A stretch of DNA of 40,017 nt from a virus (Duplodnaviria > Caudoviricetes). Below are positions 3,237-27,538 of the stretch, piece by piece. The notes under the pieces are model-generated. The model saw only the letters and a program-made list of their open reading frames with translations. It did no database searches and had not been told where the DNA came from. Each line of letters begins with the position of its first letter. Position 1 is the stretch's first letter. The stretch covers positions 1-40,017 of the IMG/VR virus record IMGVR_UViG_3300032236_000402; one strand, given 5' to 3'. A program made the translations under genes and the position numbers.

Positions 3237-5042
3237 TTGGGAATTTTTAGACGTAGCAACGGAACGCCTTCACAGCCGAACGTTCCTGCTAACGGTGCGT
3301 TCCGTGCCAGCACCCCAAATCAGCAACAGCCCACTCAACGTGTCCAATACCGCACAGACTCTTTCGGCGTAGTTTACGCTGAGCCAGCTCCCTACTCTGC
3401 TCTACGTCCACTCACCGCTGCTGCTGCTCAAATCAATTTGAATGACAAGGGTGAAGCCGAACTTTTCAAGAAGCGTCGCCAGACTGCCTCGTCTAGCTGG
3501 CAGGTTGAGGCGTGGGAATACTACGACTCGATTGGTGAAATCAAATACGCTTTCAACCTTGTTGCCTCGGTTGTCTCTCGTATCCGTCTTTACATCGCCT
3601 ACGTCGAAGACCCAACACAAACTCCACAACCAGCTCACGACAATCCTTCTATCAAGGACCCACGTCTAATCGAAGCTGCCGAACGTGCCCTTCAACGTCT
3701 TGACTCTGCATACGGAGGCCAGGCAGGTCTACTCAAGGACGCTGCTCTAAACCTTTCGACTGCTGGCGAGTGCTACCTTGTCCAGATTCCGCCACGCTTG
3801 GGTTCTGGACTTCCTGAGAGCTGGGACATTCGTTCCGTTGACGAACTTCAGGTTGACCAAAAGGGCAACTACGTCATCAACCCACGTCGCGACATTACTG
3901 GTTCCGCAGGTAGTGTCCAGCGCAACTTCGACACCATCTCACTTCCGCCAACAGCTTTCGTTGGTCGTATCTGGCGTTCACACCCACGTTACTCTCAGGA
4001 AGCAGACTCCTCGCTACGCGGTCTACTTGACCTCTGCGCCGAACTTCTACTTCTAAACCGCACCTTCCGTGCCACCGCACGTTCACGCCTCAACGCTGGT
4101 GCTCTTTACTTGCCAGATGGTCTTTCAGTTGCCGCCAACGCTGGACCAAGCTACCCTTACGATGACGAAACAGGTCTGCTTGCTGACCCTACTCCTGAAG
4201 AACTACAGGACGACTTCGAAGACCAACTCATCGACGCGATGGTTACTCCAATCAAGGATGAGGACTCTGCCTCAGCAGTTGTTCCACTGATTATTCGTGG
4301 TCCTGCCGAACTTGGTGACAAGATTAAGCAGTTCAAGTTTGAGCGTTCTTTTGACCCAGCTCTTGCCGAGCGTGCTGACCGAGTTCTAGAGCGTATCCTT
4401 CAAGGTCTCGACGTCCCTAAGGACATCGTTACAGGTCTTGCCAACATCAAGTACTCAAACGCAATTCAGATTGACGAGACTCTTTACAAGGCACACATCG
4501 AGCCACTTATGTTGCTCATCACCGATGCCTTTACAGTTGTCTACCTACGCCCATACTTGATTGCTAACGGCTTCGACCCTGAAGAAGTTGAGCGTATGGT
4601 CATTTGGTATGACCCATCTCTTATTGCTACTCGCAATGACCGCGCAGCGGACGCAGACGCAGGTTTCGACAAGATGGCCGTTTCGTTTGAGACTTGGCGA
4701 CGCACTCACGGATTCTCAGATGCAGATGCACCGAACGCAACCGAGCTTGGTCTACGTCTGTTGATTGAGAAGGGTATGCTCAGCCCTGAGCTTACCGAGG
4801 CTCTGATGAACGCAGTTTCGCCAGACATTATGAACGCTGCTCGTGATGCAACTCAGGCTAACTCGGTTGCTCCAGAATCTCCTGACGTTGAATCAGCGTT
4901 GGGTCTAGGCGGAACACCTGCTCCTGCACCTGCTCCTGCACCTGCAAGTCCTGCCACCCCAGCTGCTCCAGCTGCTCCTGCAACTCCAGCCGCTCCAGAA
5001 AATACCGCACCTCCAATTCCTCTGGCAGAACCGTCAGAATAG
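3237..5042 (+). CDS. Portal protein
   Basis: 601 aa, TTG start with AAGGA RBS; WQVEAWEYYDSIGEIKYA, GRIWRSHPR and RSRLNAG resemble actinophage portals; Pro/Ala C-tail; first large head gene. Confidence 0.8.
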   Translation: MGIFRRSNGTPSQPNVPANGAFRASTPNQQQPTQRVQYRTDSFGVVYAEPAPYSALRPLTAAAAQINLNDKGEAELFKKRRQTASSSWQVEAWEYYDSIGEIKYAFNLVASVVSRIRLYIAYVEDPTQTPQPAHDNPSIKDPRLIEAAERALQRLDSAYGGQAGLLKDAALNLSTAGECYLVQIPPRLGSGLPESWDIRSVDELQVDQKGNYVINPRRDITGSAGSVQRNFDTISLPPTAFVGRIWRSHPRYSQEADSSLRGLLDLCAELLLLNRTFRATARSRLNAGALYLPDGLSVAANAGPSYPYDDETGLLADPTPEELQDDFEDQLIDAMVTPIKDEDSASAVVPLIIRGPAELGDKIKQFKFERSFDPALAERADRVLERILQGLDVPKDIVTGLANIKYSNAIQIDETLYKAHIEPLMLLITDAFTVVYLRPYLIANGFDPEEVERMVIWYDPSLIATRNDRAADADAGFDKMAVSFETWRRTHGFSDADAPNATELGLRLLIEKGMLSPELTEALMNAVSPDIMNAARDATQANSVAPESPDVESALGLGGTPAPAPAPAPASPATPAAPAAPATPAAPENTAPPIPLAEPSE

Positions 5043-5060
5043 TCCCTCCCAACATAAAGG

Positions 5061-5066
5061 TATAAT
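5061..5066 (+). promoter_or_regulatory. -10 element for a leaderless dps transcript
   Basis: TATAAT, then 6 nt, then ATG at 5073; no RBS. Confidence 0.65.
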
Positions 5067-5072
5067 TTCACC

Positions 5073-5624
5073 ATGAACAATTTCTCGACATCTTCTTCGA
5101 ACCCAGACTCACAGGCTCTCGCTGGTGCTCTAGCGGTTCTTCTTTCTGACGTCTACACTATGTACCACAGCGTGCACGGCTACCACTGGAACTTGAAGGG
5201 TTCTGACTTCCCAGAATTCCACAAGCTCTTCAACAAAATCTACGATGACGTCTGGGAAAGCGCAGATGGTATCGCAGAGAACATGTTGAAGCTTGGCTAC
5301 GATGCTCCATACCTTCTAACAGACTTCCTGAGCCTAACCACAATCAACGCTCAGCGTGCAAAGAGCAACGACAAGATTACTCTTTGCCTTTCGCTACTTG
5401 ACATGAACTCCAGCGTTCTTGCAAGCCTAAACAATGTCTTCCAGATGGCTCAGGACCAGAACAAGCAGGGTATCTGCAACTTCATCGCTGACCGTATCGA
5501 CAAGCACACTTTCTGGCAGTGGTGGTTGGCCGCTTCTACAGGCGTTGACATCACAACTCTTGACCAGGATGTCACTGTCGAGACTTACGAAGCTCCTGAC
5601 CTGGACTCAGACTTCCTTTCCTAA
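5073..5624 (+). CDS. dps: Dps / ferritin-like DNA protection protein
   Basis: Dps signature HGYHWNLKGSDFPEFHKLF..IY..V..SADGIAE..LKLG. Confidence 0.9.
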   Translation: MNNFSTSSSNPDSQALAGALAVLLSDVYTMYHSVHGYHWNLKGSDFPEFHKLFNKIYDDVWESADGIAENMLKLGYDAPYLLTDFLSLTTINAQRAKSNDKITLCLSLLDMNSSVLASLNNVFQMAQDQNKQGICNFIADRIDKHTFWQWWLAASTGVDITTLDQDVTVETYEAPDLDSDFLS

Positions 5625-5649
5625 ACTCCACGCATAAAAGGCGGGGAGC

Positions 5650-8600
5650 ATGGACAAGCCTACGCATTCTAGCTTTGTATTAGCTAAGAGTCACACAAGC
5701 AATCGACCACGGGCGCTAGTTGCCGCTGGAATTATCGATGCCGCTAAGCGTAGAGCCATTGTTGCTACCGAGTGGCGTGACCGATATGGCCGTTGGGTCG
5801 ATATGGGTAGAAGCGTCCGCTTCAAGTTCCGTCTAAAAGATGGAACTCTTGTAGATTCTCACGGACGTTTCCTTGGAGCTGACCGCAAACGCCCAGGCTA
5901 TGCCAGAATCTATGTAAAGGGAGATAAGTATCTTCCAGATGGCGTCTATTCTGTAAGTTCTAAGAATGGTGCAGAAGAATTAGCCAATCTTGACCCTAAA
6001 TATCTAGCAGCTCGCGGTATTCGCCCTGGATATCACCAAAATGGCAGCCCAATTACCAGCCGTTCTTACGAAGATGTCCCAAATATCGGGGATATGACCT
6101 ACACCAAGCCTACAAAACAAGATTTGCAGGACATTCAGGACTCAGTTCCGCTTCTAGACCGCCCGCTACAAGAGGGAGCTAAGAAAGCAGCGGACCTTGA
6201 GAAGGGTGACGTCATTGAACACGGAAAAACTGCACGTCGAGGCACTATTACCCACGTTTCTAACGGTGCAAAGGGTAGAAAAAACCTAACTATTGCTTGG
6301 AAAGATGGTTCCAAGGACAAAACTACGATTGACCCCAAGCAAGATGTCAAAGTTTTGAAGGAATTGCCACTAGATGAACCAAAGCCAGTGGAAAAACCAG
6401 TATCAGAGGGTCCAAAGTTTGTTCAAATCCCAGTTCCAAAGCCAATTCCACCCGTAACTACCCCAATTTTGCCCAAAACTCAGCCAGATGTGATTGGAAA
6501 ATCAAAAACTTTTGATGCAAACCTGCAACCAGTCAATCCTGGCGACAAAGTTAAGATTCGAGTTCGACCAGAAGATGGCGACCCGAAGGATGATGTCGAT
6601 GTTGAGGCAACATATCTAGGTCTAACCACTTCTGACTGGAGCGCACTGCCTCCTGATAAGGATGGTTTGCCTGTTTATTCTGCTTATCGTATTCGTGGAA
6701 GCAAAGTAGTCCCAGATGGGGACTATCTGGTTCGCCGTGAAGCAGTAAATACGACTAAACCGTCTGAGTGGGGTAAAAGCAACTACGTCGATAAAGATGT
6801 TTTGATGCTTCAGGCATACGATGACATCTCAAAGTTTCCAGTTCCGCAAGGTTCGGAAGCAGCATCGCTGCTGCACTACACCAGCGCAGCTGGTTATAAA
6901 GATATAAACAATCTGCTTCGCGCTCATCCAGATAAAACTCTCGATGAGATTATGCAACTTCCGCAGCTTGATAAAAACGAACAGAACTACACGAAGATGA
7001 TTCGTGACCTCGACAACTTGATTGACCGTTCTGAAGTTAAGCAGGACACCACTGTTTATCGAGGCATTGCTCTAGAAGACCAAGCCGAACTAGACAAAAT
7101 GCAAAAACTACTTGTTCCAGGTGCAACTTGGGACGAGCAGAGCTTTGCATCTACAAGTGAAGACCAGAATGTAGCAAGAATCTTTGCTGGAACTCGCGGC
7201 ATCGTGTTCAAAATTGTTGTGCCTAAGGGTGCTAAAGCGCTACCCGTTCTTCCGCAACAGACGATTCTATCTACAGACGAGCACGAGATGATTCTTCCTC
7301 GTAATGGGCGTCTAATTATCAAGAGCGTCAATCACAAAGCCACGCTATTTACTGACCACCTTGAGGTTGAAGCCGAGTACGAGCCACCTCGCGAGGAACC
7401 TAAGGTAAAAGAATTGACTATTGCCAAGTCAAGTCTTCCATACAGCACTGCAACAGCGACAGATACTCAAGGTGTTCGCGACATGACGACCACAGCGGAG
7501 TCAGATAAGCTAGCTGAGGCTGGCCACGAGCCAACAGCCCAAGACATTGAAAACGTAACTAAGGCTGCTGACCAAAATCTGTTGATGTCCTTGGGTAATC
7601 GAAGTCTAAGCAACCTAAGCAAGCTCGGCCAGTGGGCATACAAATACACATCAGAGTCTAAAGTTCTAAACCAAAAACTACGCAAGCACGACAAAGCAAC
7701 AGAGCAGTCGCGTGAAGTAGATGCTCTAGATACTTTGATTCGTGAAACCAAACCGCTGCCTCAGGGGTCTGTTGTTTATAGAACTGTAAAGTCTGGCGTT
7801 TGGCGTAACTGGAAACTAAAACCAGGCGATGTTGTTTCAGATGATGCTTATGTTTCGACATCTATTGGAACTAAGTTGGCAGATTCTTGTAAATCAGTAA
7901 ATAAATCTAAAGGCAAGACCGTACACGAAACTATGCGTATCATCATGCCTCAAGATACGAGTGGAATTTTTCTAGGCAAGATTAGCGACTTTGAAGATGA
8001 GAATGAGTATCTGCTTCCGCGCGGAACAAAGCTACGCTATCTAGGTTTAGACTCAGACGGATATCGTGTTATGGAGCGCGTTTCAGCGCAGCCATCTTCT
8101 GAATCTGCTGATACAGAGAAGACTCGCGAGGTCTACTTCAACAAGGCTAATAACAAGCCTCAAACGCCAGGAGTAGCAACTATCAGACTTACCCCAGGTG
8201 AGCCAGTTGGTGACTCCTACGAGCCTCCTGTAAGCGGATGGGACCATGTTGAGTATGGTTACGAGAAGCAAAACAGCAAAGAGGCCAAGCAAGATATAAA
8301 AGACTTCCTAACTCGCGCTAAAGCATCTGGTGACGAGCTTCAGTTCTATGTTCAAAATCAAAATGAAATGATTGAGATTGAAGCTAAGGACATGTATAGT
8401 CCTGGCGGAATCTATGGTCAAAACGGTAAAACGTTGCAACGTGGCAACACATACATTCACTATGACTCATCTATTGATAGTAAAGAAACTCTAGACGAGC
8501 TAATCAAGACCGTTGACTATCTACATAAGAATGCACAACTTCCCGTTGGCACTCACATTATGATTACCCCTCAGGGGGCAAAAGTTATGGGAACTAAATT

Positions 8601-9006
8601 CCCTGATGATGTCTCTGGTGCTACGTTTACTCAAAAACTTGGCAAGTTCATCGCAATCACTAGACCAGATGGTGTCCACAATGACACCACGCCAAGAAGT
8701 TTAGAAGACTACGATGTAGAGGAATCTAGCACCCACTTTGCACCTTCGGCTATGGAAGTCTCGGCTCTTGCATACACAATGTTCCACGAATGGGGACACG
8801 CTTTCGAGCGCCAGCTTCTAAGCGAAAAAGAAGAGGATGACGTCCACCAAATTGGAGAGTTTGAGCACGTCTCGGACTACGGCACAGAGTCTGGTGCAGA
8901 ATTTTTTGCAGAGGTATTTGCAGACTGCCTTATTTCAAAGATGACAGGCAGCTACATGAATTTCAAGCACGTCTACGATGAGTTCATCAAACCGCACATG
9001 CACTAA
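5650..9006 (+). CDS. Putative virion effector: two VIP2/Alt-like ADP-ribosyltransferase domains plus C-terminal zincin metallopeptidase
   Basis: ART1 (~6865-7380) VYRG..FASTS..EHE; ART2 (~7636-8080) VYRT..YVSTS..ENE; HEWGH at 8785-8799 followed by VSDYG..EFFAE. Confidence 0.85.
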   Translation: MDKPTHSSFVLAKSHTSNRPRALVAAGIIDAAKRRAIVATEWRDRYGRWVDMGRSVRFKFRLKDGTLVDSHGRFLGADRKRPGYARIYVKGDKYLPDGVYSVSSKNGAEELANLDPKYLAARGIRPGYHQNGSPITSRSYEDVPNIGDMTYTKPTKQDLQDIQDSVPLLDRPLQEGAKKAADLEKGDVIEHGKTARRGTITHVSNGAKGRKNLTIAWKDGSKDKTTIDPKQDVKVLKELPLDEPKPVEKPVSEGPKFVQIPVPKPIPPVTTPILPKTQPDVIGKSKTFDANLQPVNPGDKVKIRVRPEDGDPKDDVDVEATYLGLTTSDWSALPPDKDGLPVYSAYRIRGSKVVPDGDYLVRREAVNTTKPSEWGKSNYVDKDVLMLQAYDDISKFPVPQGSEAASLLHYTSAAGYKDINNLLRAHPDKTLDEIMQLPQLDKNEQNYTKMIRDLDNLIDRSEVKQDTTVYRGIALEDQAELDKMQKLLVPGATWDEQSFASTSEDQNVARIFAGTRGIVFKIVVPKGAKALPVLPQQTILSTDEHEMILPRNGRLIIKSVNHKATLFTDHLEVEAEYEPPREEPKVKELTIAKSSLPYSTATATDTQGVRDMTTTAESDKLAEAGHEPTAQDIENVTKAADQNLLMSLGNRSLSNLSKLGQWAYKYTSESKVLNQKLRKHDKATEQSREVDALDTLIRETKPLPQGSVVYRTVKSGVWRNWKLKPGDVVSDDAYVSTSIGTKLADSCKSVNKSKGKTVHETMRIIMPQDTSGIFLGKISDFEDENEYLLPRGTKLRYLGLDSDGYRVMERVSAQPSSESADTEKTREVYFNKANNKPQTPGVATIRLTPGEPVGDSYEPPVSGWDHVEYGYEKQNSKEAKQDIKDFLTRAKASGDELQFYVQNQNEMIEIEAKDMYSPGGIYGQNGKTLQRGNTYIHYDSSIDSKETLDELIKTVDYLHKNAQLPVGTHIMITPQGAKVMGTKFPDDVSGATFTQKLGKFIAITRPDGVHNDTTPRSLEDYDVEESSTHFAPSAMEVSALAYTMFHEWGHAFERQLLSEKEEDDVHQIGEFEHVSDYGTESGAEFFAEVFADCLISKMTGSYMNFKHVYDEFIKPHMH

Positions 9007-9035
9007 TTGCTTTTATAAGCAGTTTGTAGTAGAAT
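9007..9035 (+). promoter_or_regulatory. SigA-type promoter for the 9051 gene
   Basis: TTGCTT-N17-TAGAAT, followed by AGGAG and ATG at 9051. Confidence 0.6.
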
Positions 9036-9050
9036 AGTTTTAGGAGAAAA

Positions 9051-9344
9051 ATGGCTAAGCAGAAAAATAAAATGCGTATTGACCGCTACGAATGGTCAGA
9101 CACTAACGATGTCAAGATTGTAAGAGCATCTGACATTGAAGAACCAAGTGCGCCCGTTGTGGCCTCTGCCGCTCCAGAACTAAACGATGACCCAATCACG
9201 TTGACGGTTGATACTGAAAAAGGTCCCGTGACTCTTCAGGTAGATATTGAAAGCCTGTCTTTCATGGAACTATTTGGATATTTGCCAACAGGCAATCGAC
9301 GAGTGTATGAACGCTACAACGAACTAGCCGAACAACAAGACTAA
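9051..9344 (+). CDS. Small acidic hypothetical protein (candidate ART inhibitor)
   Basis: 97-aa ORF with AGGAG RBS and own promoter, directly after the ART gene. Confidence 0.7.
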   Translation: MAKQKNKMRIDRYEWSDTNDVKIVRASDIEEPSAPVVASAAPELNDDPITLTVDTEKGPVTLQVDIESLSFMELFGYLPTGNRRVYERYNELAEQQD

Positions 9345-9367
9345 CTATCTCTGCCTATAATAGTTCT

Positions 9368-9529
9368 ATGGCTAAAGAAGAACAAGAATCCCAACTCAGC
9401 GCTCGCATGGGTAATCTTTTGGGTGTAACTATTACTTCACCTGACGGAAACCCAACAAAGCTTGTAAACATTGTTCCGCCTAGGCAAATTACACCAAACA
9501 CGCCAGAAAACAAATCAGAGTCTAAATAA
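9368..9529 (+). CDS. 53-aa leaderless small protein, not in the ORF track
   Basis: MAKEEQESQLSARMGNLLGVTITSPDGNPTKLV...SESK*; TATAAT at 9356-9361 lies 6 nt before the ATG. Confidence 0.6.
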   Translation: MAKEEQESQLSARMGNLLGVTITSPDGNPTKLVNIVPPRQITPNTPENKSESK

Positions 9530-9603
9530 TAAGATAAACTTTCTATAAGCTTATTAGAACAAAAGACGCAGACCCTAGACCTAAAACAGGAAGGCCATTC
9601 GGC

Positions 9604-12600
9604 GTGAGCTCTATCATTAACTCGCTCATCGAATCACTGGAGAAAAAGCCAGTAATTTCGGACACAGCTGTTGACACACAGACCCTAAGACAAACCATCT
9701 CTAGCCTTGTTACTGAAGCAAATGCTAACGTTCCATCTGAGCGTCGAGTTACTCTCCGCTCTGCCCTTATTGTTGCCGAACGTTCACTCGTTGCATCTGC
9801 ATCTCTTCCAAATGAGAGCCGCCGTTTCGGTGCGCTTCGCGATGTCATTAACTTCATCTCTCTCACCATTGAGGGAAGCACAGGATTCAACGCTCCTAAG
9901 CACACTGACCTCCTAGTTACAGGTCACCCAGAATCAACAGCCCCTACTGCTCTTACTGCCGCTGCCTTCCGTCGCGAGCGTGCACGCTGGGAAGCCGCTG
10001 CCCCTGAGCTAGACGAGAACATCAAGCCTATTGTTGCTGCTGCTTTTTCGGCTCACCCATCTAGCCCAGAATATCTTTACAACTACACTCGCCTTGCATC
10101 TGCTCCAGCCGCTCAGGTTCCTGCTAGCGTAATTGCTTCTCTTGAAGAGTTTGCTCTTACTGCTGCTGGCGACCCGCTATCTGGTAAGAACTCTCACGAG
10201 GCTCGTTCGGCTCGTGCAAAGGCTCAGCGTCGTGACTCTAAGGGTCGATTCGCTAGCATGGGTGGACCTATCGAGGCTCTTATTCGTGACCTTAAGGGCT
10301 TGGTTCGCAAGCTGGTTGGTCGCGTTGTTGCCAACACCATTGGCTCTGACTCGTTCGACGTTGAAGTTCACGGCGACCCAGACATTCCAGATGGTAGCAT
10401 CGTTACGATTCCTGCCAAGGATTCGACTGCTATTGAGGCTATGCTTCCTACCTCAGCAGTCAAGAATGCTCCACGCGAAACAGTTGAAAGCCTTAGCGGT
10501 AAAGAGCCAATCGTAAACCTTGCTGACCTAATGAAGACCATCAAGGATGCCCCTTCAGGTTGGACCAAGGACCCTAACTACAAGAAGCAAAACCCGTCTG
10601 ACCCAGACGAGCGTTTTGTTTCTGGCGATGGATACATTGTTGACCGCTTCGACAAGCCAACTGCTGCAAACGAGCCAACTATTTTTGCTGGTCAAGAAGT
10701 TGCTGGTGGTAAGACTAACGTTGGTCACGATGGTAGCGAGAAGCTCGACCCAACTCAGCCTGTCTACAAGCTAAGCCGCTCGACTGACTCGTATGGCGCT
10801 GCTGGCGGTCAAGAGCTTGTTGGTGTTACCCAGAGCTGGGCAGACACTCAGGTTCTTGCTGAGAAGGACACACCAGCATTTGAAAAGGCTGCTCAGGGGG
10901 GCGTTGCTTACGCTAAGAAGCCACCTGTATCTGCTCCAGCAGAACCTTCAGCTACCCCAGAAGTACCATCTGCTGAAGATGTAGCTAAGAGCTTCGGTGT
11001 AAACGTCAAGAAGATTGACGCATTCGTTAAGGACTTCTTCGAGAAGAACCCTGAGCAAAAAGCAACTAAGAAGTTTGCTGGAAACAAGAACAACCCAATC
11101 GAGGGTCTGCTTGACGAACTAGCTCAGGGCGAAGACCCTCAGCAAATCTCGGCTGACATTTATGCTCTTGCATACGACCTACCAGCATCTGACGACAAGA
11201 CCAAGCTGCTCAAGCAGGTTCTTACCAAACTTTCGCAAGATGTTTCTGACTACAACCCTAAGAAGGTAAAGCCAGCAAAGGAAGCCAAGAAAGTAGAAGC
11301 AGAACTTCCTGCACCTACTGAAGAAGCTCCAAAGGCTGAAGCACCTGCCGCTCCAGAAGCAGAGGCTCCAAAGGCTGCAAAAGCCAAAGCTGCTCCAAAG
11401 ATTTCTCCACTATCTCCTGCCCAAGCTCAAAAGCTCGAGGCTGGCGACGAACTATACATTTTCAACAAGGGTATCCCTAAGCAGTACCACGTTGGCTCGG
11501 ATGGCTACATCTATCCAGGCTCAGCACCTGCGAACATCGATGCAGACGAGACCCAAAACAACATTGGCGACACTTACGCTCTAGCTGAAGCTATGAAGAA
11601 TGGCCAAGTTAGCGGCGTATTCAAGGGTGAGATTCCTCTAAACGAGGACAACAAGCCTATGTCATCTGCTGAGCACTTGAACGCTTTGCAGGAACAGAAC
11701 GCAGCAAAAAAGGCTGCTCAAGAAGCAAAGAAAGCTGAGAAGCTAGTTGGTCAGCCAGAGGCTAAGCCAGCCCCAGAAGCTGTCGAGTCAGAGGACAAGG
11801 TTCTACCAGAGCCATTCCCTGGCTGGAAGCCTGGAAACAAGCCAATTGTAGATACTTTCGATGAGCCAACTCATGGGATGTTTGATGGCATGGCTGACAG
11901 CAAAGACTACACAGATGACCCTAAGAAGCTTGCTTCTAAGTTCACAGAAGAGCAACTGTCTCAGGCTCTCCACGATGCAATCAACAATGGCACTGGCGTA
12001 GGCGAGCTTCCGTTTGAAAAGGGCGATGAGCAGGTAGAAGCAGACAATCTTTACCACGCTCTACACGAGCAGGGTGCAGATGCAGATAAGGTTCTTGCAA
12101 ATGCTTATGATGCTGGCACTGGAAGCACTACCAACCTCGACAATCTAAACAAGTATCGCGAAGGTCTTAAGAACGCTCCTGCTGAAAAGAAGCCAGAGCT
12201 AGACAAGATTGATGAGATTACTCCTCAGAACACAAGCGATAAGGAAATTTCTCGTGCGCTGATGGGAACTAAGCCAGCCAAGGTAGCTGAGCAGTTCATT
12301 GAAAATGAAATTAAAAATGGTAGCGATAATGCAGAAAACTACCAAGCTATTAAAGATGCCATCAAGAATATTGACCGCACTGGTGACACCGAAGAAGAGG
12401 GTGTTCAAGAGCTAGCCGAGAAGTTTGCTCCTTGGGCTATGAGCAAGGACCCTAAGAAGGTTCAAGCTTTCCTTGGTCTAATGGGTCTAGTGGCTATTAG
12501 TGATGGTGGAGATGGCGGCGGTCTAAAACAATTTAGAGCAGCCATCCAGAACATTATTACTCCAGGAACTGGACTTGTCCCTGGTAGCGGCAAGCAGAAT

Positions 12601-15600: not shown

Positions 15601-18600
15601 ATTACCGTTCACAAGGGTAAGTTCTTGAATGAGCCTAGCGAAGCGCAACTTGCTTCCGCTAAGGGTTACATGGAGACCAAGGATATTCCTCAGGACCGCA
15701 AGGACTTCCTACAGGCAATCCTAGAAAAGCCAGACCTAGTTGCTGGTGAAATCGGAACGCTAATTGGCGAGCTTAAGAAGTACGAAAATCTACCTGAGGA
15801 CCAGGTCCCTGCAAAGGATAACCCTGCGGATGACATGGACAACCTGTCTGCTGTTATCAAGATTGACCCAGAGGTTGGTTCTGGATTCATTGGTGCAAAC
15901 ATCAATGATGGTGGAACTTCGTTCTTTGATGCAGATAACAAGCTAATTGCTTCGATTACACCAAGCGAACACTTTGCTGGCAAGTTTGTTGGTCAGTACA
16001 CTGACCCAATAAATGGAAAGCAAAGCTTTGTTTTCGACTCTGAAGAAAAAGCTGCTGACTACATCGGTGCTGGTCTAACCAAGACTGGACAGTGGAAGAA
16101 GAACCCATACGGTGAAGCACTAAGCGATAACTTTGCTAAGGGCGAGGAAGGCGCTATCCCTGAGGGAACTAACGCTGACCTAACTCCAATCACCGCCGAG
16201 GACATCCTAAACGCTAACCTCATTATGAATGAGGTCCAGCGCCTACACCCTGACCACACGGTTGAGGCTAACGGTGACCTAAAGCTTGCCGAGCGGACTA
16301 CTGACCCAGACGGTAATGGAAATACATTCAAGTACGAGACCATGTTCCGTCGCACCAAGCGTGAGCGTTTCTTTACTTACGTTCGCGAGACCAACCTGCA
16401 AACAGGCGAAGTTCGCGTTGTAAAAATTGGTAAAGAGCAGCACTCATACAAGGGTGTTCTAAAGAATGTTGTTCTTGGTAGAAACAATGTCTTGTTCCAC
16501 CGCGATGTTCGCAACTGGTTCCAGAAGAAGACTGGCATTGAAACTGTAAAGCCAGGCGAGGGACCAAGTAACCCATTCACTGACCTCAACCTTGGTGACT
16601 CTATTCCTAAGACTGGAGATGCAGTTAAGGATAGTCTCATTTCGATGATTGGAAACCTTGCCGAGGTAGGCGAGGCTCACGGTCCAATGCTCGATGCTCT
16701 ACACAGCACCGCAGTGGCTCAGGGGCTTTCTAAGGACTTTGTTGACCAGACTCTGGCTAAGATTCTTGAAAACAAGCAAAAGATGGCTACGGCTATGCAC
16801 CACCCAGATGGTGAGCCAGAGCCTGTAGCACCACACCTAAGCTACAACGGCAAGGAAATCAAGCCTGGCGATATCGTTGACTGGACTGACCCAGAAACTG
16901 GAACAGTCCACCGTGGATACGTTGTAAAGCTTCAATACAAGCACAACTCTAAGGACTACAAGTATTCTGACCAGACTACCTGTGTGTTCCCAACATACAA
17001 CGCTGAAATCGCAAAGCAAAAGCTTGCCGAGGGCAAACCTGCTCCTCACAAGAACCAGCAGCGTAACCGCGTAAGTTCTAACCTTATTGTTGTAGACAGC
17101 AAAGATGCTCCAATGAGCGAGCCATTCAGCCCTAAGTTGAAAGAGAAGCTCACTCAAGAAAGCGTTGCTAAGGCTGGAGAAACTAAGGTTGCCCCAGAAA
17201 AGATTGCTGAAACTCTAGAAAACTACAAGCCAGCAGTCAAGCCAGTCAAAGCTGTTTCGAGTGGTCTAAAGTTTGTTGAAGGCCAGTCTCACGATGTTGT
17301 AGTTGATGCCAATGGAGATAAGTTCGTCACATTTGGCGACCAGAAGGTTCCTACCTACAAAGATTCACCTGCGATGATGCAGGACCTGGAACCTACCTCG
17401 AAGAGCGGAACCGTTGGTGAATTCCAGCCTGGAGATGTTCTAAACATGAAGTCTGGTATTCAGCACATCCTTCAGGTTCACGACGACGGTAGTGCTATCC
17501 ACCTGACTACCGCTGTTCCTGACTCAAGTGGCAACGTAGAAATTAAGAACATCACCATCCAAAAAGATGGCTTTATGGACCAAGCAATGCTTGCTGGTTA
17601 CGCAACCAAATCTAAGCTCGCTTTTGGTTCTAAGCCATTCAAGGAGGCTACACCTGTAGCTGCACCAAATGGTGAAGTTGCACTAGATGGCGAAAGCGGT
17701 GTCTCACTTGAGCCAGCTGCCCAGACTGGAATTACTGCTAAAGATGCAGTAGATGGTGCTTCTGCAATTTCTACTAGCATCAAAAATGATGCAGATGCTT
17801 CAGCAGCTGTGAACACCACAGACCTAGATGATGCAATCAATAAGTCTGCTCAGGATGCTTCGACTGCTTCTACTTCTGATGCAACTACCCCTGTGCAGGT
17901 AACTGTTGCTAAGGATGTTAAGACATTTGGGACTGCTGGCGAGGTAACGGCCAAGGGTCTAGACAAGAAGAGCACTGCTACCGCTTCTCAGTTGGGTATC
18001 CCAGAAAACATTGATGGTGTTGCTTACTCAAGCCTGGAGCACGGTCTATCCGTTGAGCAAATCTGGAAATCTGGTTTTGACAACATCAAGGTAAAGACTG
18101 GCGACAACAAGTATGTAATCCCTGGAGCTATCGTCACAAGCGAAGACGGTTCAAGCACTGGTGTTATTACTGTTACCGACAAGGCTAGCGGTCAGGTGGG
18201 AGTCACCTGGCTACAAGGAGATAAGGCTGGCAAGCACGAAGCTGGACTGGCATCATCTTCTACCAAGGACACTGGTGTTTGGATGGACCCATCCACTGCC
18301 GCTGACCTAGGTGTGGCCGTAGATACAGACCAAATCAACAACGGTAAGCAGATTATTGCTCAAAAGATTCAGCAAATAAAGAAGGACCAAGCCGCTTCTA
18401 TCGCTGCAAAGGCAAAAGAAGCTCAGCTTAAGGCGCTTGCTGACAAGGCAAAAGTTTCTGGAACTGGTGCAGATACCGTTGTTGCAGAGGCCAAACCTTG
18501 GCACACCTCCGAGTTCGCTGGTGTAGATAGCCTAGATGATGCACTAGATAAGGTGAAGTCCAGCCCTGCTGTAAGTGCTAGTGGTCGCGAAGTTCTAGTT

Positions 18601-19785: not shown

Positions 19786-19799
19786 GTTAGGAAAAAATA

Positions 19800-20477: not shown

Positions 20478-20493
20478 CAAAGCTAAAGGATAC

Positions 20494-23400
20494 TTGATGA
20501 CAGAGGTCATTGGTCGGTCTGACCATCTAGTACTCATTGGTGACGACACCAATGGTGTAATTATCGACACCGATTTTAATCTAATCGTCGAAAGTGGTCC
20601 AAAGTCTGACCTGCAAAAATCCAAGGTTTGGGTTTTTTCCGAGTCTTACAATCTTTCAGATGATGTTATCAATCTAGCTAACGCTGCTTTGCAGTCATTC
20701 GCCGCCAAAGCCCTCACCGCGAGTGCTGGCCGCATGTATACAATTCCCAAGAGCGCCCAGGCTGAAGCAAAAAAGGCTTTGGAGTGGCACGCAACGTATC
20801 ACAGAGGTGGTACACCAGTAGGACTAAACACAGCTCGCACTCTTTCAGGAGGCGGACAAGTAAGTCTTAAAGTAGTCAAGCACATTGCTAAGTATTTCCC
20901 TCGTCACGAGGTTGATAAAAAGGGCAAGGGCTACACCCCAGGAGAAGACGGTTTCCCTTCAAACGGACGTATCGCTTGGGCACTTTGGGGCGGTGACGCT
21001 GCATGGCGTTGGGCTTCAGATATTGTTGAACGAGAGAAAAAGGCCCTAACTGCCGATGGTCAGCTAGATTCCGAAACACTTTTGAACAACCAGCAAAACA
21101 ACCCAATTGCTGCTTTTCAAGAAGCATTTACTTCGGAGGCAATCGATGGTCCAGAGTTTATTGCTAGAGTTCGTCTCGATGGTTCTGGCATTGACCGTCT
21201 TTATAAGGTAGATATTGACGGAAGCGTCTATGTCTGGGACAACTGCAACTGGGATGACCTTTGTGATGTTGATAGCGACATCTGGACTTTTGATAAAGCC
21301 CTAGATGACCCATATGACTTGGTGTCTAAGTCTCACATCCTTATTGACCCATCTTCAGCTGTTGTCATTGCAGCACGTCTAGACATGAACCCCTTTGAGT
21401 GTGTATCTGTTTTTGATATCGATTCAGAAGAAGCGATTCTTGTTGCTGATGCCATCTCGGACATCGACTGGGACCTGATTGACAATGTTGTAACTGCTGC
21501 TGGTGCTCAGGTTGCTCCTGGCTATACACCAGAAGAACGAGCACAAAATGCAGAACACCAAAAGCGTGCTACTGGCGGTAAGTTTGCTAAGCAGAAGAGT
21601 GCAACACTGCCAGCAAAGGGTACAGGCAAGGATGTTCCCGCTGCTGGGCCTAAGGAAGCTCCGACCCCCTCTGAAGCAGCGCCAGCAGATGCAGACAAGC
21701 CTGAGGCTCCTAAGCTTGACCTAACTGGAATTCTTGCTAAGGACCCAACACCTGCTCCTCAGCCAGCGGCAAAGATGGCAGGAAATCTTCCTGCAATGAG
21801 CGCACCAGATGTTCACAACATGCTGAGTAAGTGGGACTCGTTTGTTCAATCAAAGCGTGGCTCAATTCAGACTTCAGATGAAGATAAGAATGAAAAGCGT
21901 TCTGCCGTAGATAAAGCTACTGCTGCTCAACCTGCTCACGCTCAGAATGAAAAGCGCGATGTTGTTGCAGATGCAAAGCAATCAACCGAGGCCAAGGCTA
22001 CAAACCCATATGCACACCCTCTAGTCCAAGACTGGGTGAAGAACAAGGCTGCTGCCGCCTCTAGTCCAGATGCCACAAAGCAGTGGGCTGTTCCTACAGT
22101 TGCTGCCGCTGGACCTGCTGGAACTCCAGTTACTCCAGAAAACTCGGATGTTCAACCTGTATATGTAGCAATTGTTGCTGATGATGACCCTCGTGCAGTC
22201 CTAGACCTAGTTGCTATTGTCCCTGCAAGCACCACACAAAGTGCTCCTATGACTTACGTTCGCAAGAACAAGAAGTGGGTTCGCGATGACAAGATGCTCA
22301 ATGACCTTAAGTCAGCGACTCCTCCACCAACAGTCCCTCTAGATGCAACTACCCTAGACTCGGTTCTAAAGCAGGTCGATGGTATTGCCATGACTGCGGC
22401 AGCTGTAACTGGTGACCAGATTCTAAATATTCTTTGGGGTCCAAATAAAGAACTCGTTAGCTACATCAAGAACGAGGTGATGCCAACCTTCAAGTATGAA
22501 GAAACTTTGGCACATTTTGACAATGCCCTTGTTGCTGGTGGCGGTCTTGACCGTGACCGTGGTCAAGCAGAAAAGCTTCGTCACTACTGGGATTTCGGTC
22601 CAGGTGCAGCAAAGATTCGCTGGGGTATGCCTGGCGACTGGTCACGCTGCGTTCGTCACCTTGCTAAGTATCTAGGTGTTCGTGCTAAGGGCTATTGCCA
22701 ACTTCGCCACAAGGAAGTTACTGGCATGTATACAGGCACTCACGCCAAACTCGTTCGCGAAGCTGAAGGCAAGGGTGGACACCACCACGAGCACTCTATC
22801 TCGGAGCTAGCCACACAAAACTTTGATTCCATGTCTGACCACTCTGCTGATGACCCTTGCTGGGATGGCTACAAGCAGATTGGTTTCAAGGACAAGAATG
22901 GCAAGCACGTTCCTAACTGCGTAAAGGCATCTGGAGCTAAGTCAGAATTTATTATGGAAGAAGTCTGGGGCGAGAACATTGGAACCCCGACAGTAGTCAC
23001 AGATAAAGACATGCTTATGCCACTTCCTAAGATTATGAATCTTAAGGATGACATCTATGACCACCACTGGGAGCCAGATGAGGAAACTATTGGCTACCTA
23101 AAGCACCTAAACGAGTGCGATGATGCAGACTTCGAAGCACTTACCGCAGCGGGAACTTTCAAGCCTTCAGCAGGTAGCGCAGATAAGCTTCGCAACTACT
23201 GGGTCATGGGCAAGGGTGCAGCCAAGATTCGTTGGAACACTAACGGCGACTGGACCCGCTGTGTGCAGAACCTATCTAAATACATGGGACCTCGCGCCCG
23301 TGGATGGTGTGCACTTCGCGCCAAGGAAGTTTCAAACAACTGGGTTGGCGACAAAGGCTCGCGTCAGGTATACGGAAAACTTGGAAAACTTCAGGGAACG

Positions 23401-25281
23401 CACTTCAGCAACCAAAGCCTAAACGCTACTAACCACGTTATTGAACTTGCAGCCCTAAATGCACGCTCTAAGCAAGCTAAGAACCGAGTCCTTGGTTTGA
23501 CAGCTGGCGCTGGTGAATTCCAGCCAGGAGCTGCTTTTAGAATCCCTCTAGTAATTCCAGAAGGTATTGAATCTGGTGATGGACGTAAGTTCCTCCCAGG
23601 CGCAATCACCACCCGTGAACTTCCACTTCCGCTGCTTTGGCAAATTAAGACTGGCGACGGTCACCAAGGTTCTGTGGTTGTTGGTCGAATTGACCACATG
23701 GAACGCATTGAAAATGGTATTGGAAATGCCTACGGTGTGTTTGACAATGGAGAGTATGGTCAAGAAGCTCAGCGTCTAATCCAAAATGGATTTATTCGTG
23801 GTGTATCTGCTGATATGGACCGCTTCGAAGCAATCGAAGAGCCAGTAGAAGCTGGCATTGAAGACCAGCCTGAAGTCATCGGCAAGAACAAGCTTGTTAT
23901 AAATAAAGCCCGTGTAATGGCTGCTACAATAGTAGCTAAGCCAGCATTCCAAGAATGTCAAATCTTCATCAATAAAGATGAACTTCCTCAGGAGGAAAAC
24001 ATGATTCCAGACGGAGTCTACGCAGGAGAAGTTGACCCTTCAGACGCTAACTCAATCGTTGCGTGTGGATTCGTCGCTGGCGCTATCCCAGTAGAGCCAC
24101 CAGCTAGCTGGTTCGTAAACCCTAAGCTCGACAAGGCTACCCCACTTACAATCACAGACGATGGTCGAGTATTCGGTCACATCGCTGCGTGGCACGTTGA
24201 CCACATTGGTATGGCATTTGGAACTAAGCCTCCTCGTAGCAAGAGCAACTACGGATACTTCCACACTGGTGTTGTCCGCACTGAAGACGGCTCGGATGTT
24301 CCAGTAGGTCAGCTAACTCTCGCAGGTGGTCACGCTTCTCTTCACGCAAGCGCCCAGGAAGCAGTTAAGCACTACGACGATACCGCATCAGCTTTTGCAG
24401 ACGTTCACGCTGGCGAAGATGCCCACGGTATCTGGGTAGCAGGTTCGCTACGCCCAGGCACAACTCCAGAGCAGATTCGCGCTGCCCGCGCATCAGCACC
24501 TTCTGGTGACTGGCGTCCAATCCGCGGTTCGCTTGAGCTTGTTGCTGTATGTCAGGTAAACGTTCCTGGCTTCCCAATCGCTCGTGCCCGCGTTGCTTCT
24601 GGTCAAGTTGTTGCTCTTGTTGCCGCAGGTGCTATGACTCTTGCCAAGATGAAGAATGACCCAGTTGCTGAGCTTTCAAACCGCATCAACCAAATTGAAG
24701 CTTCGCTGAATCAGCCAAGCGTTGAGGCTCGCGCCGCTGAGATTCGTGCTCGCATGGAGTCAGAGTTTGGCTACATCCCACAGGCAAAGCGTCAGGAAAT
24801 GGCCAAGAAGGGTGAAGCTCTTCCAGATGGCTCATACCCAATCGCTACTAAGGGTGATGTTGAGAAGGCTATTCACGCCTACGGACGCGCTAAGCCAGAG
24901 CACAAAGCGGCTGTAAAGAAGCACATTATCAAGCGTGCTAAGTCGCTAGGTGTGTCGCACCTGATTCCAGATAGCTGGAAGCCAGTGTCAGCAGCAGCAA
25001 TCACTGCCAGCGTAGATGACCTACGCGCACGTCTTGCTTCGTTCGCTGCTGTAACAGACTTTGCTGAAATCTCGGATGAAGAGCGTAAGAAGCTTGCATC
25101 TGAAGGTAAAGCAATGCCAGATGGTTCATACCCAATTCGTAATGAGCAAGACCTAAAGAATGCCATTCAAGCATTTGGTCGCGCAAAGACCGAAGACCGT
25201 CCGATGGTAAAGGCACACATCAAAGAGCGTGCCCACGCAATCAACCACGCTGAGTTGATTCCAGACAACTGGAAGAACTAA
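20494..25281 (+). CDS. Capsid maturation (prohead) protease fused to many accessory modules
   Basis: Protease-like domain ~23530-23965 (DGR..LPL..GH..VVGRI..GVSAD..ATIV..PAF); second related domain ~24095-24590 (GGH..SGDWR..LELV..VNVPGF); directly upstream of the major capsid gene. Start may be ATG 20497. Confidence 0.8.
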   Translation: MMTEVIGRSDHLVLIGDDTNGVIIDTDFNLIVESGPKSDLQKSKVWVFSESYNLSDDVINLANAALQSFAAKALTASAGRMYTIPKSAQAEAKKALEWHATYHRGGTPVGLNTARTLSGGGQVSLKVVKHIAKYFPRHEVDKKGKGYTPGEDGFPSNGRIAWALWGGDAAWRWASDIVEREKKALTADGQLDSETLLNNQQNNPIAAFQEAFTSEAIDGPEFIARVRLDGSGIDRLYKVDIDGSVYVWDNCNWDDLCDVDSDIWTFDKALDDPYDLVSKSHILIDPSSAVVIAARLDMNPFECVSVFDIDSEEAILVADAISDIDWDLIDNVVTAAGAQVAPGYTPEERAQNAEHQKRATGGKFAKQKSATLPAKGTGKDVPAAGPKEAPTPSEAAPADADKPEAPKLDLTGILAKDPTPAPQPAAKMAGNLPAMSAPDVHNMLSKWDSFVQSKRGSIQTSDEDKNEKRSAVDKATAAQPAHAQNEKRDVVADAKQSTEAKATNPYAHPLVQDWVKNKAAAASSPDATKQWAVPTVAAAGPAGTPVTPENSDVQPVYVAIVADDDPRAVLDLVAIVPASTTQSAPMTYVRKNKKWVRDDKMLNDLKSATPPPTVPLDATTLDSVLKQVDGIAMTAAAVTGDQILNILWGPNKELVSYIKNEVMPTFKYEETLAHFDNALVAGGGLDRDRGQAEKLRHYWDFGPGAAKIRWGMPGDWSRCVRHLAKYLGVRAKGYCQLRHKEVTGMYTGTHAKLVREAEGKGGHHHEHSISELATQNFDSMSDHSADDPCWDGYKQIGFKDKNGKHVPNCVKASGAKSEFIMEEVWGENIGTPTVVTDKDMLMPLPKIMNLKDDIYDHHWEPDEETIGYLKHLNECDDADFEALTAAGTFKPSAGSADKLRNYWVMGKGAAKIRWNTNGDWTRCVQNLSKYMGPRARGWCALRAKEVSNNWVGDKGSRQVYGKLGKLQGTHFSNQSLNATNHVIELAALNARSKQAKNRVLGLTAGAGEFQPGAAFRIPLVIPEGIESGDGRKFLPGAITTRELPLPLLWQIKTGDGHQGSVVVGRIDHMERIENGIGNAYGVFDNGEYGQEAQRLIQNGFIRGVSADMDRFEAIEEPVEAGIEDQPEVIGKNKLVINKARVMAATIVAKPAFQECQIFINKDELPQEENMIPDGVYAGEVDPSDANSIVACGFVAGAIPVEPPASWFVNPKLDKATPLTITDDGRVFGHIAAWHVDHIGMAFGTKPPRSKSNYGYFHTGVVRTEDGSDVPVGQLTLAGGHASLHASAQEAVKHYDDTASAFADVHAGEDAHGIWVAGSLRPGTTPEQIRAARASAPSGDWRPIRGSLELVAVCQVNVPGFPIARARVASGQVVALVAAGAMTLAKMKNDPVAELSNRINQIEASLNQPSVEARAAEIRARMESEFGYIPQAKRQEMAKKGEALPDGSYPIATKGDVEKAIHAYGRAKPEHKAAVKKHIIKRAKSLGVSHLIPDSWKPVSAAAITASVDDLRARLASFAAVTDFAEISDEERKKLASEGKAMPDGSYPIRNEQDLKNAIQAFGRAKTEDRPMVKAHIKERAHAINHAELIPDNWKN

Positions 25282-25374
25282 GCCCAAAGATTTACTAGAA
25301 AATGCCCAATGCATTGATGGTAAAGAGGGAGAGAAATCAACCTCAACATAATAATAAACAATAGAAATCTATTG

Positions 25375-25486
25375 TAAAATTATCCTAGGTAAAGTGCCTA
25401 ACGTTTTATATGCGTATAGTCCCTTTGCTTTGGACCGAACAGCCGATAAATGAAATACATTTATCAAACTGGCCTAAGGAGGTACA
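25375..25486 (+). promoter_or_regulatory. Capsid gene -10 element and structured 5' leader
   Basis: TAAAAT at 25375-25380 after an A-rich tract; hairpin GATAAATG-aaata-CATTTATC at 25445-25465; AAGGAGG RBS at 25476-25482. Confidence 0.5.
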
Positions 25487-27538
25487 GTGGACCAGATTAA
25501 GTCGCAGGTTGATAGCCTGTCAGAGCTTAGTGACGAACAAGTCGCCGAGCTTCAAGCATCTATCATCAGTGAATTTGAATCCTTCGAGTCCCAGGACCCT
25601 ACCGCTGAGTCAGTTGACGCTATGACGTCGCTTGCCGATATGCTGGATTCCGTTCGCGGAGAAGCCCAGCGTCGTGAAGCAGCGCTCCAAGAGCTAACTG
25701 CTCGGGCATCCGAAGCAGCTATGCGCGTAAAGGGCGAAGACGTCACATCAGATAGTGAGTATGCAATGGACAACCAAACCGATGATGTCACCCCAGGTGA
25801 CCAGACCGACGTAACAGATGGCACACAGCCAGATGCTACCGACGATGGCCAGCCAACCGATGACACCACTCCTGCCGCAGAGGTAGATGTAGTTGAGGCT
25901 CAGCCAGTAGTTCCTACTGACGACCAGACCTCAGCATCTGACACCCCTATGGAGGACATGGGAGAGGCCCCAGTCGAGACCCCAGGTCAAGACGAAGGCG
26001 ACCAGACTCCAGCAGAAGAGGACCAGGAGACTCCTGAAGAGGAGAAGGCTGAGCCTATGGAAGAGGATGACCAGAAGAAGGCATACGCAGTTGAAGGTGC
26101 AGAAGCAGCAACTGAAGCAGTAGAAGGTTCTGAACTCGCAACAAACACCCCAGAAAGCGCAGAGCTTTCAGCTGATGTAGCACCCGCTACCGAGGCATCA
26201 ATCGAATCAACAGATGCTCCACAAGAGCAGGAAGGGCAGGTTCCCGTGACCGCCGCAGCAGACGAGAGCTTCTCAGCTCCAGCTGACCGCCAGCCCCTAA
26301 TCCAGGTTACAGAAGCCCCAGTAGCAATCACTGCTGGTGCAGACATCCCTGGCTACACAGCTGGTAGCACAATTGACAACATGCAAGGCGTTGCCGAGGC
26401 AATGGAGAAGCGTCTCCACTCGCTACGTCGTGTAAACGGTGGCGACGGAGAGCAGCACATTGTTGCTTCGTTCACCACTGCATTCCCAGAGGACCGTACT
26501 CTTGGAACAGATGCAGAGGCAAACTGGAACAAGGTCCAGAATGTCGTTGGCCCAGAGGCTCTTACAGCTTCGGGTGGTCACGCTGCTCCATTCCAGGTTA
26601 AGTACGACATCTACGCAATCGGTTCAACCACAGTTCGCCCAATCCGCGACTCGCTGCCTAGCTTCCAAGCTGACCGCGGTGGTATCCGTTTCGTAACCCC
26701 ACCTCGCTTCGACCAGAACTACTACGACAACGCCGTAGGTATCTGGACCGCAGCTGTGGATGCCGCTCCTTACAGCAACACCAAGACATCGCTCACCGTT
26801 ACTGCTGCTCAAGAGCAGACCGTGTCAACCGACGCCGTCACCTTGCAGCTACAGTTCGGTAACCTGATGACCCGTGCGTACCCAGAGCTTATTGCTCGCC
26901 ACAACGAGCTTGCTCTCGTTCAGCACGCACGCGAGGCCGAGGTCAACCTCGTTAGCAAGATTGGTGCAGCTTCGACAGCTGTTACTACTTCTTCGCTAAT
27001 CGGTTTTGGCCGCGACTTCCTGGTACAGGTTCGTCGCGCTGCCGTTGGTTACCGCTCACGTCACCGCATCGACGTCAACACCCAGCTGAAGGCTATCATT
27101 CCTCAGTGGGTATACGACGCGATGGCTGCTGACCTCACCCTCAACATGCCTGGTGACAACAACCTTGGCGTCTCGAAGGCTGAGATTGACGGTTACCTAG
27201 CAAACAGCAATGTAACTCTTATCCCTTCTCCAGACATGACCGTATTCTCTGCTCAGTCTGCTGGTGCTCTTCTTGAGTTCCCAGACAGCTTCGACTGGTT
27301 CTTGTTCGCTGAAGGTACGTTCTTGTTCCTAGACGGTGGAACCCTCGACCTCGGAATTATCCGTGACTCGACCCTCGTCGGTACAAACGACTACAAGATG
27401 TTCATTGAAACATTTGAGAACGCTGCATTCGTTGGTATTGAATCGCTGAAGATTACTTCTACAATCAACGTCAACGGTGTTGCTGCTGCTCTCCGCGACA
27501 CCACTGGTGGCGCAACCGCAGCTGCTATCGAGTACTAA
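25487..27538 (+). CDS. Major capsid protein with long acidic N-terminal scaffold-like extension
   Basis: Strong RBS and biased codons; ALTASGG..RPIRDSLPSFQADRGGIRF, GNL..RAYPE and LDGGTLDLGIIRDS resemble actinophage HK97-type capsids; downstream hairpin. Confidence 0.85.
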   Translation: MDQIKSQVDSLSELSDEQVAELQASIISEFESFESQDPTAESVDAMTSLADMLDSVRGEAQRREAALQELTARASEAAMRVKGEDVTSDSEYAMDNQTDDVTPGDQTDVTDGTQPDATDDGQPTDDTTPAAEVDVVEAQPVVPTDDQTSASDTPMEDMGEAPVETPGQDEGDQTPAEEDQETPEEEKAEPMEEDDQKKAYAVEGAEAATEAVEGSELATNTPESAELSADVAPATEASIESTDAPQEQEGQVPVTAAADESFSAPADRQPLIQVTEAPVAITAGADIPGYTAGSTIDNMQGVAEAMEKRLHSLRRVNGGDGEQHIVASFTTAFPEDRTLGTDAEANWNKVQNVVGPEALTASGGHAAPFQVKYDIYAIGSTTVRPIRDSLPSFQADRGGIRFVTPPRFDQNYYDNAVGIWTAAVDAAPYSNTKTSLTVTAAQEQTVSTDAVTLQLQFGNLMTRAYPELIARHNELALVQHAREAEVNLVSKIGAASTAVTTSSLIGFGRDFLVQVRRAAVGYRSRHRIDVNTQLKAIIPQWVYDAMAADLTLNMPGDNNLGVSKAEIDGYLANSNVTLIPSPDMTVFSAQSAGALLEFPDSFDWFLFAEGTFLFLDGGTLDLGIIRDSTLVGTNDYKMFIETFENAAFVGIESLKITSTINVNGVAAALRDTTGGATAAAIEY

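Follow-up and report, generated by a model that had tools for sequence, protein, structure and literature searches.

An Ala-centred tetrapeptide in the head proteins of a siphovirus-type phage lineage is most likely a prohead-protease cleavage motif

Why does a short peptide of the form [LVIM][TV]A[ASG] recur through the head proteins of a tailed phage? The question is raised by IMG/VR virus record IMGVR_UViG_3300032236_000402 (Duplodnaviria; Caudoviricetes), analysed here as one window of 40,017 nt whose + strand carries a siphovirus-type virion operon encoding, in order, a portal protein, a Dps-like protein, an ADP-ribosyltransferase (ART) protein, a 97-aa open reading frame (ORF), a giant protein, a 225-aa ORF, a 1595-aa protein, the capsid protein, a 298-aa protein and the tail proteins. 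An earlier examination of the letters, referred to as the sequence-only reading, had proposed that the peptide marks domain boundaries and that one phage protease cuts at it, trimming portal, capsid and cargo leaders and dicing its own 1595-aa precursor, hereafter the polyprotein. The comparisons described below point to a real, lineage-wide peptide code that is most likely a prohead-protease cleavage motif.

The strict motif was scanned for in the 23 ORFs of the window; a relaxed form, which also takes Ile at the second place, was used for the polyproteins of relatives. All 19 strict sites that had been named were present on the + strand: LTAA in the portal at 3411..3422 (aa59), LVAA in the ART protein at 5716-5727 (aa23), VVAS in the 97-aa ORF at 9156-9167, four sites in the giant protein (9787, 9952, 10030, 10156), eight in the polyprotein (20713, 21490, 22390, 22528, 23140, 23497, 24616, 25000) and four in the capsid (26246, 26327, 26459, 26561). 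The loose variants LTAD (aa185), TVAA (aa535) and IVAC (aa1188) were likewise found in the polyprotein translation, at 21046, 22096 and 24055-24081. Eight further strict matches came to light at 2601 and 2715 (a 124-aa ORF), 3558 (portal), 15736 (body of the giant protein), 26798 (within the capsid fold) and 29511, 37929 and 39810 (tail genes). Both matches in the 124-aa ORF were rejected as unconserved, the motif being present in 14 of 62 distinct homologous segments, and the fetched loci of relatives contained no homologue of the 97-aa ORF.

The predicted enrichment in head over tail proteins was borne out. The 11 ORFs of the head region (8413 aa) contain 24 matches where 6.1-6.2 are expected, a number reached by none of 1000 shuffles whether global, in 30-aa blocks or in 15-aa blocks, whereas the 10 tail ORFs (3753 aa) hold 3 against 4.5-4.8 expected, which is no excess. 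With Ala or Gly added at the fifth position the counts became 15 versus 0.8 expected in the head and 0 versus 0.7 in the tail. Taken singly, the polyprotein (8 versus 1.3; 0/2000 shuffles), the capsid (5 versus 0.8; 5/2000) and the 124-aa ORF (4/2000) are enriched; enrichment was not significant for the portal (161/2000), the ART protein (738/2000), the giant protein (196/2000) or the 97-aa protein (73/2000). Because the motif had been picked by eye, all 44,100 four-position class patterns were scored on nine head proteins. The motif ranked third (22 versus 6.0, log10 p -6.4), the two patterns above it being one shift and one subset of it, and the same pattern reached log10 p -27 in held-out cultured phages. 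No Glu-ending pattern appeared among the top 25 of the 44,100; the enriched motif centres on Ala.

The signal was also sought in eight distant cultured actinophages (Rosebush, Adriana, Rasputia, BruhMoment, TP1604, RoadKill, MementoMori and Forza). Their portal, protease-region and capsid proteins together contain 89 motifs against 21.0 expected, and their other virion proteins 38 against 37.8; six of the eight phages surpass all 300 shuffles, with Forza (13 versus 2.2) and RoadKill (14 versus 2.6) among the phages whose head proteins carry an excess. TM4, Bxb1 and Che8 differ from these phages in capsid type, and their head proteins showed no enrichment (3 versus 4.0). This null result and the replication in cultured phages together argue that the signal belongs to this head lineage and does not reflect actinophage composition.

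Positions as well as numbers are conserved. Counts were taken from de-duplicated sets (34 of 57 capsids, 28 of 45 polyproteins, 44 of 81 portals and 41 of 52 long cargo proteins kept), in which close relatives share ancestry, so that the counts are not independent. In the polyproteins the relaxed motif holds the joint at aa74 in 15/28 relatives, at aa333 in 18/28, aa535 in 17/28, aa633 in 16/28, aa883 in 10/10, aa1002 in 21/28, aa1193 in 19/28, aa1375 in 28/28 and about aa1503 in 23/28, while the letters change and the codons vary freely; since both vary at fixed positions, the constraint acts on the peptide. A DNA-level repeat was rejected as an explanation on account of the codon variation. 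The assertion that the motif marks module borders also held among 143 representatives at 50% identity, where 684 motifs lie outside profile-defined modules (91 expected) and 72 inside (53 expected). That the polyprotein would yield about ten proteins is a prediction, and several of its sites are matched in fewer than 60% of relatives.

One such conserved site is in the capsid gene (25487..27538, + strand, 683 aa; phrog_777 E 3e-75; NF033847), which encodes the major capsid (hexamer) protein and whose product runs from a helical N-terminal region through an acidic linker and a prodomain to the capsid domain. LTAS-GG at 26561..26572 (aa359) is the predicted site of maturation between prodomain and capsid domain: the form h-[TVI]-A-[AS]-G is present in 34/34 close capsids and 8/8 distant ones (one as LIAA), and many tblastn matches to distant capsids start at aa357-358. 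A cut here would leave a capsid protein of 322 aa and 34.7 kDa. Rosebush, Adriana and Rasputia repeat this junction, as (V/T)A(S/A)GGW-x-x-P, in the linkers of their own protease fusions; the copies are located in the fusions L142:9734-12181, L148:6360-8933 and L143:14964-18812. The other capsid sites fared differently from what had been supposed. ITAG (26327) and IVAS (26459), together spanning 26327..26470, lie within the conserved prodomain, are kept in close relatives and are mostly lost as motifs in distant phages; they are probably structural, as some other motif sites may be. The match at 26798 likewise falls in conserved folded sequence, and 26246 bears the signature of a translation start. 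PDB structure searches returned no match to the window capsid or to a profile of the protease-like domains discussed below, and matched Rosebush gp15 by its C-terminal extra domain, not its core; since no solved structure matched the capsids, the PDB gave no mature N-terminus. Mass spectrometry of Rosebush virions assigned 17 spectra (11.4% coverage) to gp13 in band 3; individual peptides and band sizes are not given, and the data are uninformative on cutting (PMC7150772).

The portal gene (3237..5042, + strand, 601 aa; phrog_776 portal, E 6e-103) carries its leader site, a predicted propeptide cut, in the same column in 44/44 close portals, and in distant cultured portals a motif lies within aa7-67 in 8/8. 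A leader is also where the motif is found in the presumed cargo. The first 190 residues of the giant protein (9604-19785, + strand, 3393 aa), at 9604..10173, contain four sites where 0.28 are expected, and its remaining 3203 aa contain one where 2.15 are expected. Among 41 long cargo proteins whose genes lie between those of portal and protease, 53 motifs fall in the first 200 residues against 6.3 expected, with a motif there in 26/41, and 20 fall in the bodies against 27.3. The excess in leaders and its absence from bodies indicate that cargo is tagged at the front, not diced. In the 1118-aa ART protein (5650..9006, + strand; PF03496 E 1e-31 over two stretches, hence two ADP-ribosyltransferase domains), LVAA stands directly ahead of an R-D-x-x-G-R-W module, and several relatives have equivalent leader sites.

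More generally, the last leader motif often shortly precedes an R-D-x-x-G-R-(F/W) box (26/88 distinct boxes versus 11% background). Boxes of the form R-(D/A)-x-x-G-(R/K)-(F/W) were seen at 5776-5796 in the ART protein, 10231-10251 in the giant protein and 21565-21585 in a polyprotein module, and an Atlas search with the R-D-x-x-G-R-F module gave no usable match. The N-terminal domains of the ART and giant proteins are weakly similar (26%, E 2e-4). Within the giant protein one segment is weakly ART-like (PF01129 E 0.038), and another, near aa1330-1500, looks kinase-like by eye; relatives keep the leader of this protein while exchanging its body. The Dps/ferritin-like gene (5073..5624, + strand; PF00210 E 2e-16) is motif-free in the window. 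In relatives L065, L080, L092, L095, L135, L137 and L141 it is extended to 385-733 aa by motif-bearing segments, and in proteins P0055, P0091, P0105 and P0118 Dps is fused to the domain called P2 below.

The putative enzyme is encoded by the polyprotein gene (20494..25281, + strand), counted here from TTG 20494, although ATG 20497 may be the true start. It carries two domains with conserved His and Ser residues. P1 (aa1011-1159, 23524..23970) has His1057 and Ser1105, the latter in GVSAD; P2 (aa1195-1365, 24076..24588) has His1280 and Ser1337, the latter in SGDWR, and matches phrog_18402, head maturation protease, at E 4e-59. In an AlphaFold model of aa996-1400 built from 101 sequences (mean predicted local distance difference test, pLDDT, 86.7) both domains fold. 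The P1 model matched T4 gp21 (5jbl; Z 10.0, rmsd 3.9, 127 aligned residues) and the assemblin of varicella-zoster virus (VZV; 1vzv; Z 9.7, rmsd 2.8, 112 aligned), the first unrelated row scoring 6.6, so that the protease fold ascribed to the GVSAD domain is upheld by structure matching of a predicted model. Foldseek against the PDB gave nothing at E<=0.001, the best match being the Epstein-Barr virus (EBV) protease at 3e-3. For P2 the reading as a protease is a prediction from the PHROG label, a weak Atlas lead and the near-invariance of its His (152/152 rows) and Ser (151/152); three more His are conserved in this domain, and a search with Pfam Peptidase_S78 gave no match to it. A single-sequence fold of aa1001-1419 (pLDDT 31.9) was not used, and modelling P2 in complex with the peptide of the capsid junction scored 0.01, which is evidence neither way.

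The motif brackets P2. It occurs within 25 aa after P2 in 136/141 representatives and before it in 88/131, and P2 is motif-flanked in cultured phages too. Behind P2 of the window lies the invariant LVAA-G (24616..24627, aa1375), a predicted release site present in 28/28 relatives. The model agrees in part with the expectation that sites fall in linkers: LVAAG lies in a stretch with pLDDT<50, although the rest of the model is confident, which would suit an exposed site, and LTAG (aa1002) is also of low confidence, but at the cut end of the modelled fragment.

Since the motif marks module borders and leaders, is conserved, and accompanies a gene holding a domain of assemblin/gp21 fold, its likely function, and the best reading, is that of a protease recognition signal. 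In its fuller form this reading, which we consider moderately probable, takes (L/I/V/M)-(T/V/I)-A-(A/S/G)-(G/A) as the recognition site of the phage's own prohead serine protease, with P2 as the main enzyme and the scissile bond predicted, by analogy, after the motif Ala. Portal, cargo and polyprotein would enter the prohead as precursors. There P2 (His1280/Ser1337), probably also made from an internal start at 24001, would free itself at its flanking sites, strip the scaffold and prodomain from the capsid with a cut near aa361, trim the leaders off portal and cargo while leaving cargo bodies whole, and split the polyprotein into as many as about twelve pieces of 5-23 kDa, with P1 acting as an accessory second protease.

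Several observations, besides the shared ancestry of the relatives, weigh against this reading. About 6 of the 24 head-region matches in the window are expected by chance, and 15/41 long cargo proteins lack a strict leader motif. Enrichment is weak in BruhMoment (5/300 shuffles) and MementoMori (13/300), the latter also having 9 motifs against 5.3 expected in its non-head set. The polyprotein sites at aa185, 679, 1366 and 1407-22 are matched in just 7, 12, 5 and 9 of 28 relatives, and the IVAC/FVAG site before P2 falls in a predicted helix. As for the enzyme, the protease rows from the PDB cover model residues 10-170, which is P1 only, and the fold of P2 was unmatched in those searches; the profiles of P1 and P2 have no detectable similarity (hhalign probability 0.7%); and the ESM Atlas lead from P2 to Mu-like/S80/S77 proteases is weak (0.92-0.93, recognition below the mark). 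No published cleavage sites or motif for this phage group were found in the open literature, and subscription papers outside the search may bear on novelty.

Which of the two domains would do the cutting is a point on which the sequence-only reading, with its single GVSAD enzyme, probably erred. That P1 is the main enzyme for the same code, and P2 a second enzyme or a structural domain, is favoured by the P1 fold, by a weak match to Pfam Peptidase_S78 (14 bits, E 0.057, below the curated cut-off of 21) and by a His and a Ser that are each present in 118/119 rows, their catalytic role being assigned by pattern; P1 occurs in 119/143 representatives. P2, however, is the commoner domain, being found in 142/143 representatives and in 875 phage records against 500 for P1, although the P1 count is a lower bound since this domain is less conserved. 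A P1 profile that matches Rosebush, MementoMori and DSL-LC01 found nothing when run over the complete genomes of Forza and RoadKill, a search able to miss a very diverged copy, and ten long polyproteins with P2 in which P1 was not found nevertheless contain 72 motifs against 10.7 expected. Because the motif is kept where P1 was not found and P2 is retained, it appears to travel with P2, and P2 (SGDWR) is predicted to be the better candidate enzyme; P1 as main enzyme is accordingly an unlikely alternative. It is also rather improbable that the motif is never cut and serves to bind a head component, as a peptide for docking or capsid targeting. Its place in cargo leaders, often just before the R-D-x-x-G-R-(F/W) box, would suit such a role, and the capsid-targeting sequence of T4 is a short N-terminal signal in the available text of PMC9026906. 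However, the same motif flanks the protease domain on either side and stands at the junction after the capsid prodomain, all places where cuts would be expected. Nor are docking and cleavage exclusive, since T4 couples targeting to cutting.

Two other explanations are much harder to sustain. A host protease could read the motif, given that the connection between enzyme and sites is indirect, but the motif tracks the phage lineage whether the host is Mycobacterium, Gordonia, Microbacterium, Arthrobacter or Streptomyces, and unrelated M. smegmatis phages show no enrichment of it, which makes this very improbable. Ala-rich helices and strands might also yield such tetrapeptides by compositional or structural bias. 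This is true of some sites (those in the 124-aa ORF, portal 3558 and capsid 26327, 26459 and 26798), and about 6 chance matches are expected, but as a general cause it is largely refuted by the local shuffles, by Ala-rich tail proteins with no excess, by the replication in other phages and by the position of sites outside modules; we give it scarcely any weight.

Two nested in-frame products, from 24001 and 26246, are also likely. The sequence at 23990..24003 (+ strand) consists of AGGAGG, 5 nt and ATG (M1170), and codon and Shine-Dalgarno (SD) conservation suggests an internal start: ATG, GTG or TTG is found in 27/28 relatives, and the mean anti-SD energy of -10.3 equals in strength that of the capsid gene's own start. 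The product would be a 426-aa protein of P2 and tail, a portion that Forza encodes as its own gene. The second likely start is laid over VTAA (26246..26257, + strand, aa254) at the end of the acidic capsid linker. The codon at aa254 is GTG in 32/34 relatives and ATG in 2/34, hence a start codon in 34/34, whereas GTG makes up 11% of Val codons in these genes; among the 22 Val columns of the capsid only aa254 and the first codon are nearly all GTG, the next reaching 21/34. The mean anti-SD energy is moderate (-5.9), and a 430-aa capsid form would be made beside the 683-aa form. Distant phages have the motif at the equivalent place with non-start codons in 4/6, so the peptide site seems to be older and the start likely overlaid. 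Strong internal starts were not evident at like places in the distant cultured capsid genes, and evidence for the two is limited to the DSL-LC01-like clade.

Systems in which a prohead protease cuts many substrates at one short motif are already known. T4 gp21 cuts the capsid, the scaffold and internal proteins at L/I-X-E, among them Alt, an ADP-ribosyltransferase with a leader (PMC9026906, available text), and gp245 of SPN3US cuts at A-X-E, with 14 sites in nine proteins (PMC10052503, likewise in part). The window resembles T4, SPN3US and phiKZ in having one short motif common to capsid propeptide, protease and cargo leaders; its leader layout resembles the T4 propeptides described in the accessible portion of PMC9026906, and P1 matches gp21 in structure. 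It differs from T4 and SPN3US in that the residue before the predicted bond is Ala, not Glu, and from T4 in being a siphovirus-type actinophage whose protease lies within a 1595-aa polyprotein with two protease-like domains. Herpesvirus assemblin offers a parallel for the Ala. The assemblin sites of pseudorabies virus (PrV), predicted in the part of PMC4498786 available, are YLQA-T and VQA-S, with nested UL26/UL26.5, and nested in-frame products of herpesvirus protease genes are treated in the available parts of PMC11565193 and PMC8537868. Shared with the assemblin system are the P1 fold, a hydrophobic-x-Ala sequence followed by a small residue and a likely nested in-frame product. The sequence pattern of the motif behind P2 would fit a release site, the position of the bond being set by analogy. 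In contrast, the nested product here would begin with a second protease-like domain and not be scaffold alone, and there are many more predicted sites and substrates.

The prohead protease of HK97 removes the delta domain by cutting after Lys. As in HK97, a prodomain precedes the capsid fold and the predicted cut falls just before the Gly-Gly motif of the N-arm; unlike it, the prodomain here is 361 aa long with a likely internal start. Related actinophages share P2, P1 and the capsid, the last with tblastn matches in 797 phage records, and carry this motif at the capsid junction, in the leader of the portal and on the flanks of P2. The window polyprotein differs from theirs in having numerous additional modules, and a MuF domain was not detected in it. 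The main text of the Rosebush structure paper contains neither 'cleav' nor 'protease' (PMC7150772), and cleavage goes unmentioned in the available portions of the DSL-LC01 paper (PMC10611076) and of a Microbacterium survey (PMC7302621).

The remaining features of the locus are as follows. The 97-aa ORF occupies 9051..9344 (+ strand), and the 298-aa protein after the capsid occupies the slot of an annotated capsid pentamer gene. The closest records to the capsid are DSL-LC01 (69%) and Gordonia phage Forza (45%) by tblastn, and the 'major capsid hexamer' proteins of many actinophages are 24-27% identical to it; since the closest records are actinophages, we infer an actinobacterial host. In the polyprotein, module pairs are duplicated at 22540-22749 and 23152-23373 (phrog_6439-like twice) and at 24775-24984 and 25069-25278 (a 70-aa C-terminal module twice), and a His-rich insertion at about aa755-815 (window 22600-22950), missing in close relatives, matches several small PHROG families. 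RoadKill gp15 (L146:9985-12867), annotated 'RNA ligase', starts with a motif-flanked P2, and similar Gordonia entries share the label. Over positions 1-2000 of the window the + strand is strongly skewed towards T and G and lacks long genes; this is probably a region of leftward genes or repeats.

If the preferred reading of the motif is correct, the mature ends of capsid, portal and cargo proteins can be predicted in many actinophages, a group comprising the 875 phage records with P2 and including mycobacteriophages such as Rosebush that grow on M. smegmatis. Cutting specific for Ala, as herpesvirus proteases do it, would then have an example among phages. The annotated 'capsid maturation protease' of these phages often contains two protease-like domains, and two unannotated nested gene products are predicted. 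A more speculative picture, which we put forward tentatively, is of a two-protease head in which an ancient tandem of barely related serine proteases, the second also made from a nested start, would read a herpes-like Ala code as a cassette system: modules bracketed by the tag (Dps, ADP-ribosyltransferases and enzymes), often next to an R-D-x-x-G-R-F box, would be loaded into the prohead and then released. Such a system, if real, would explain the shuffling of modules between relatives and would give a portable tag for loading actinophage capsids.

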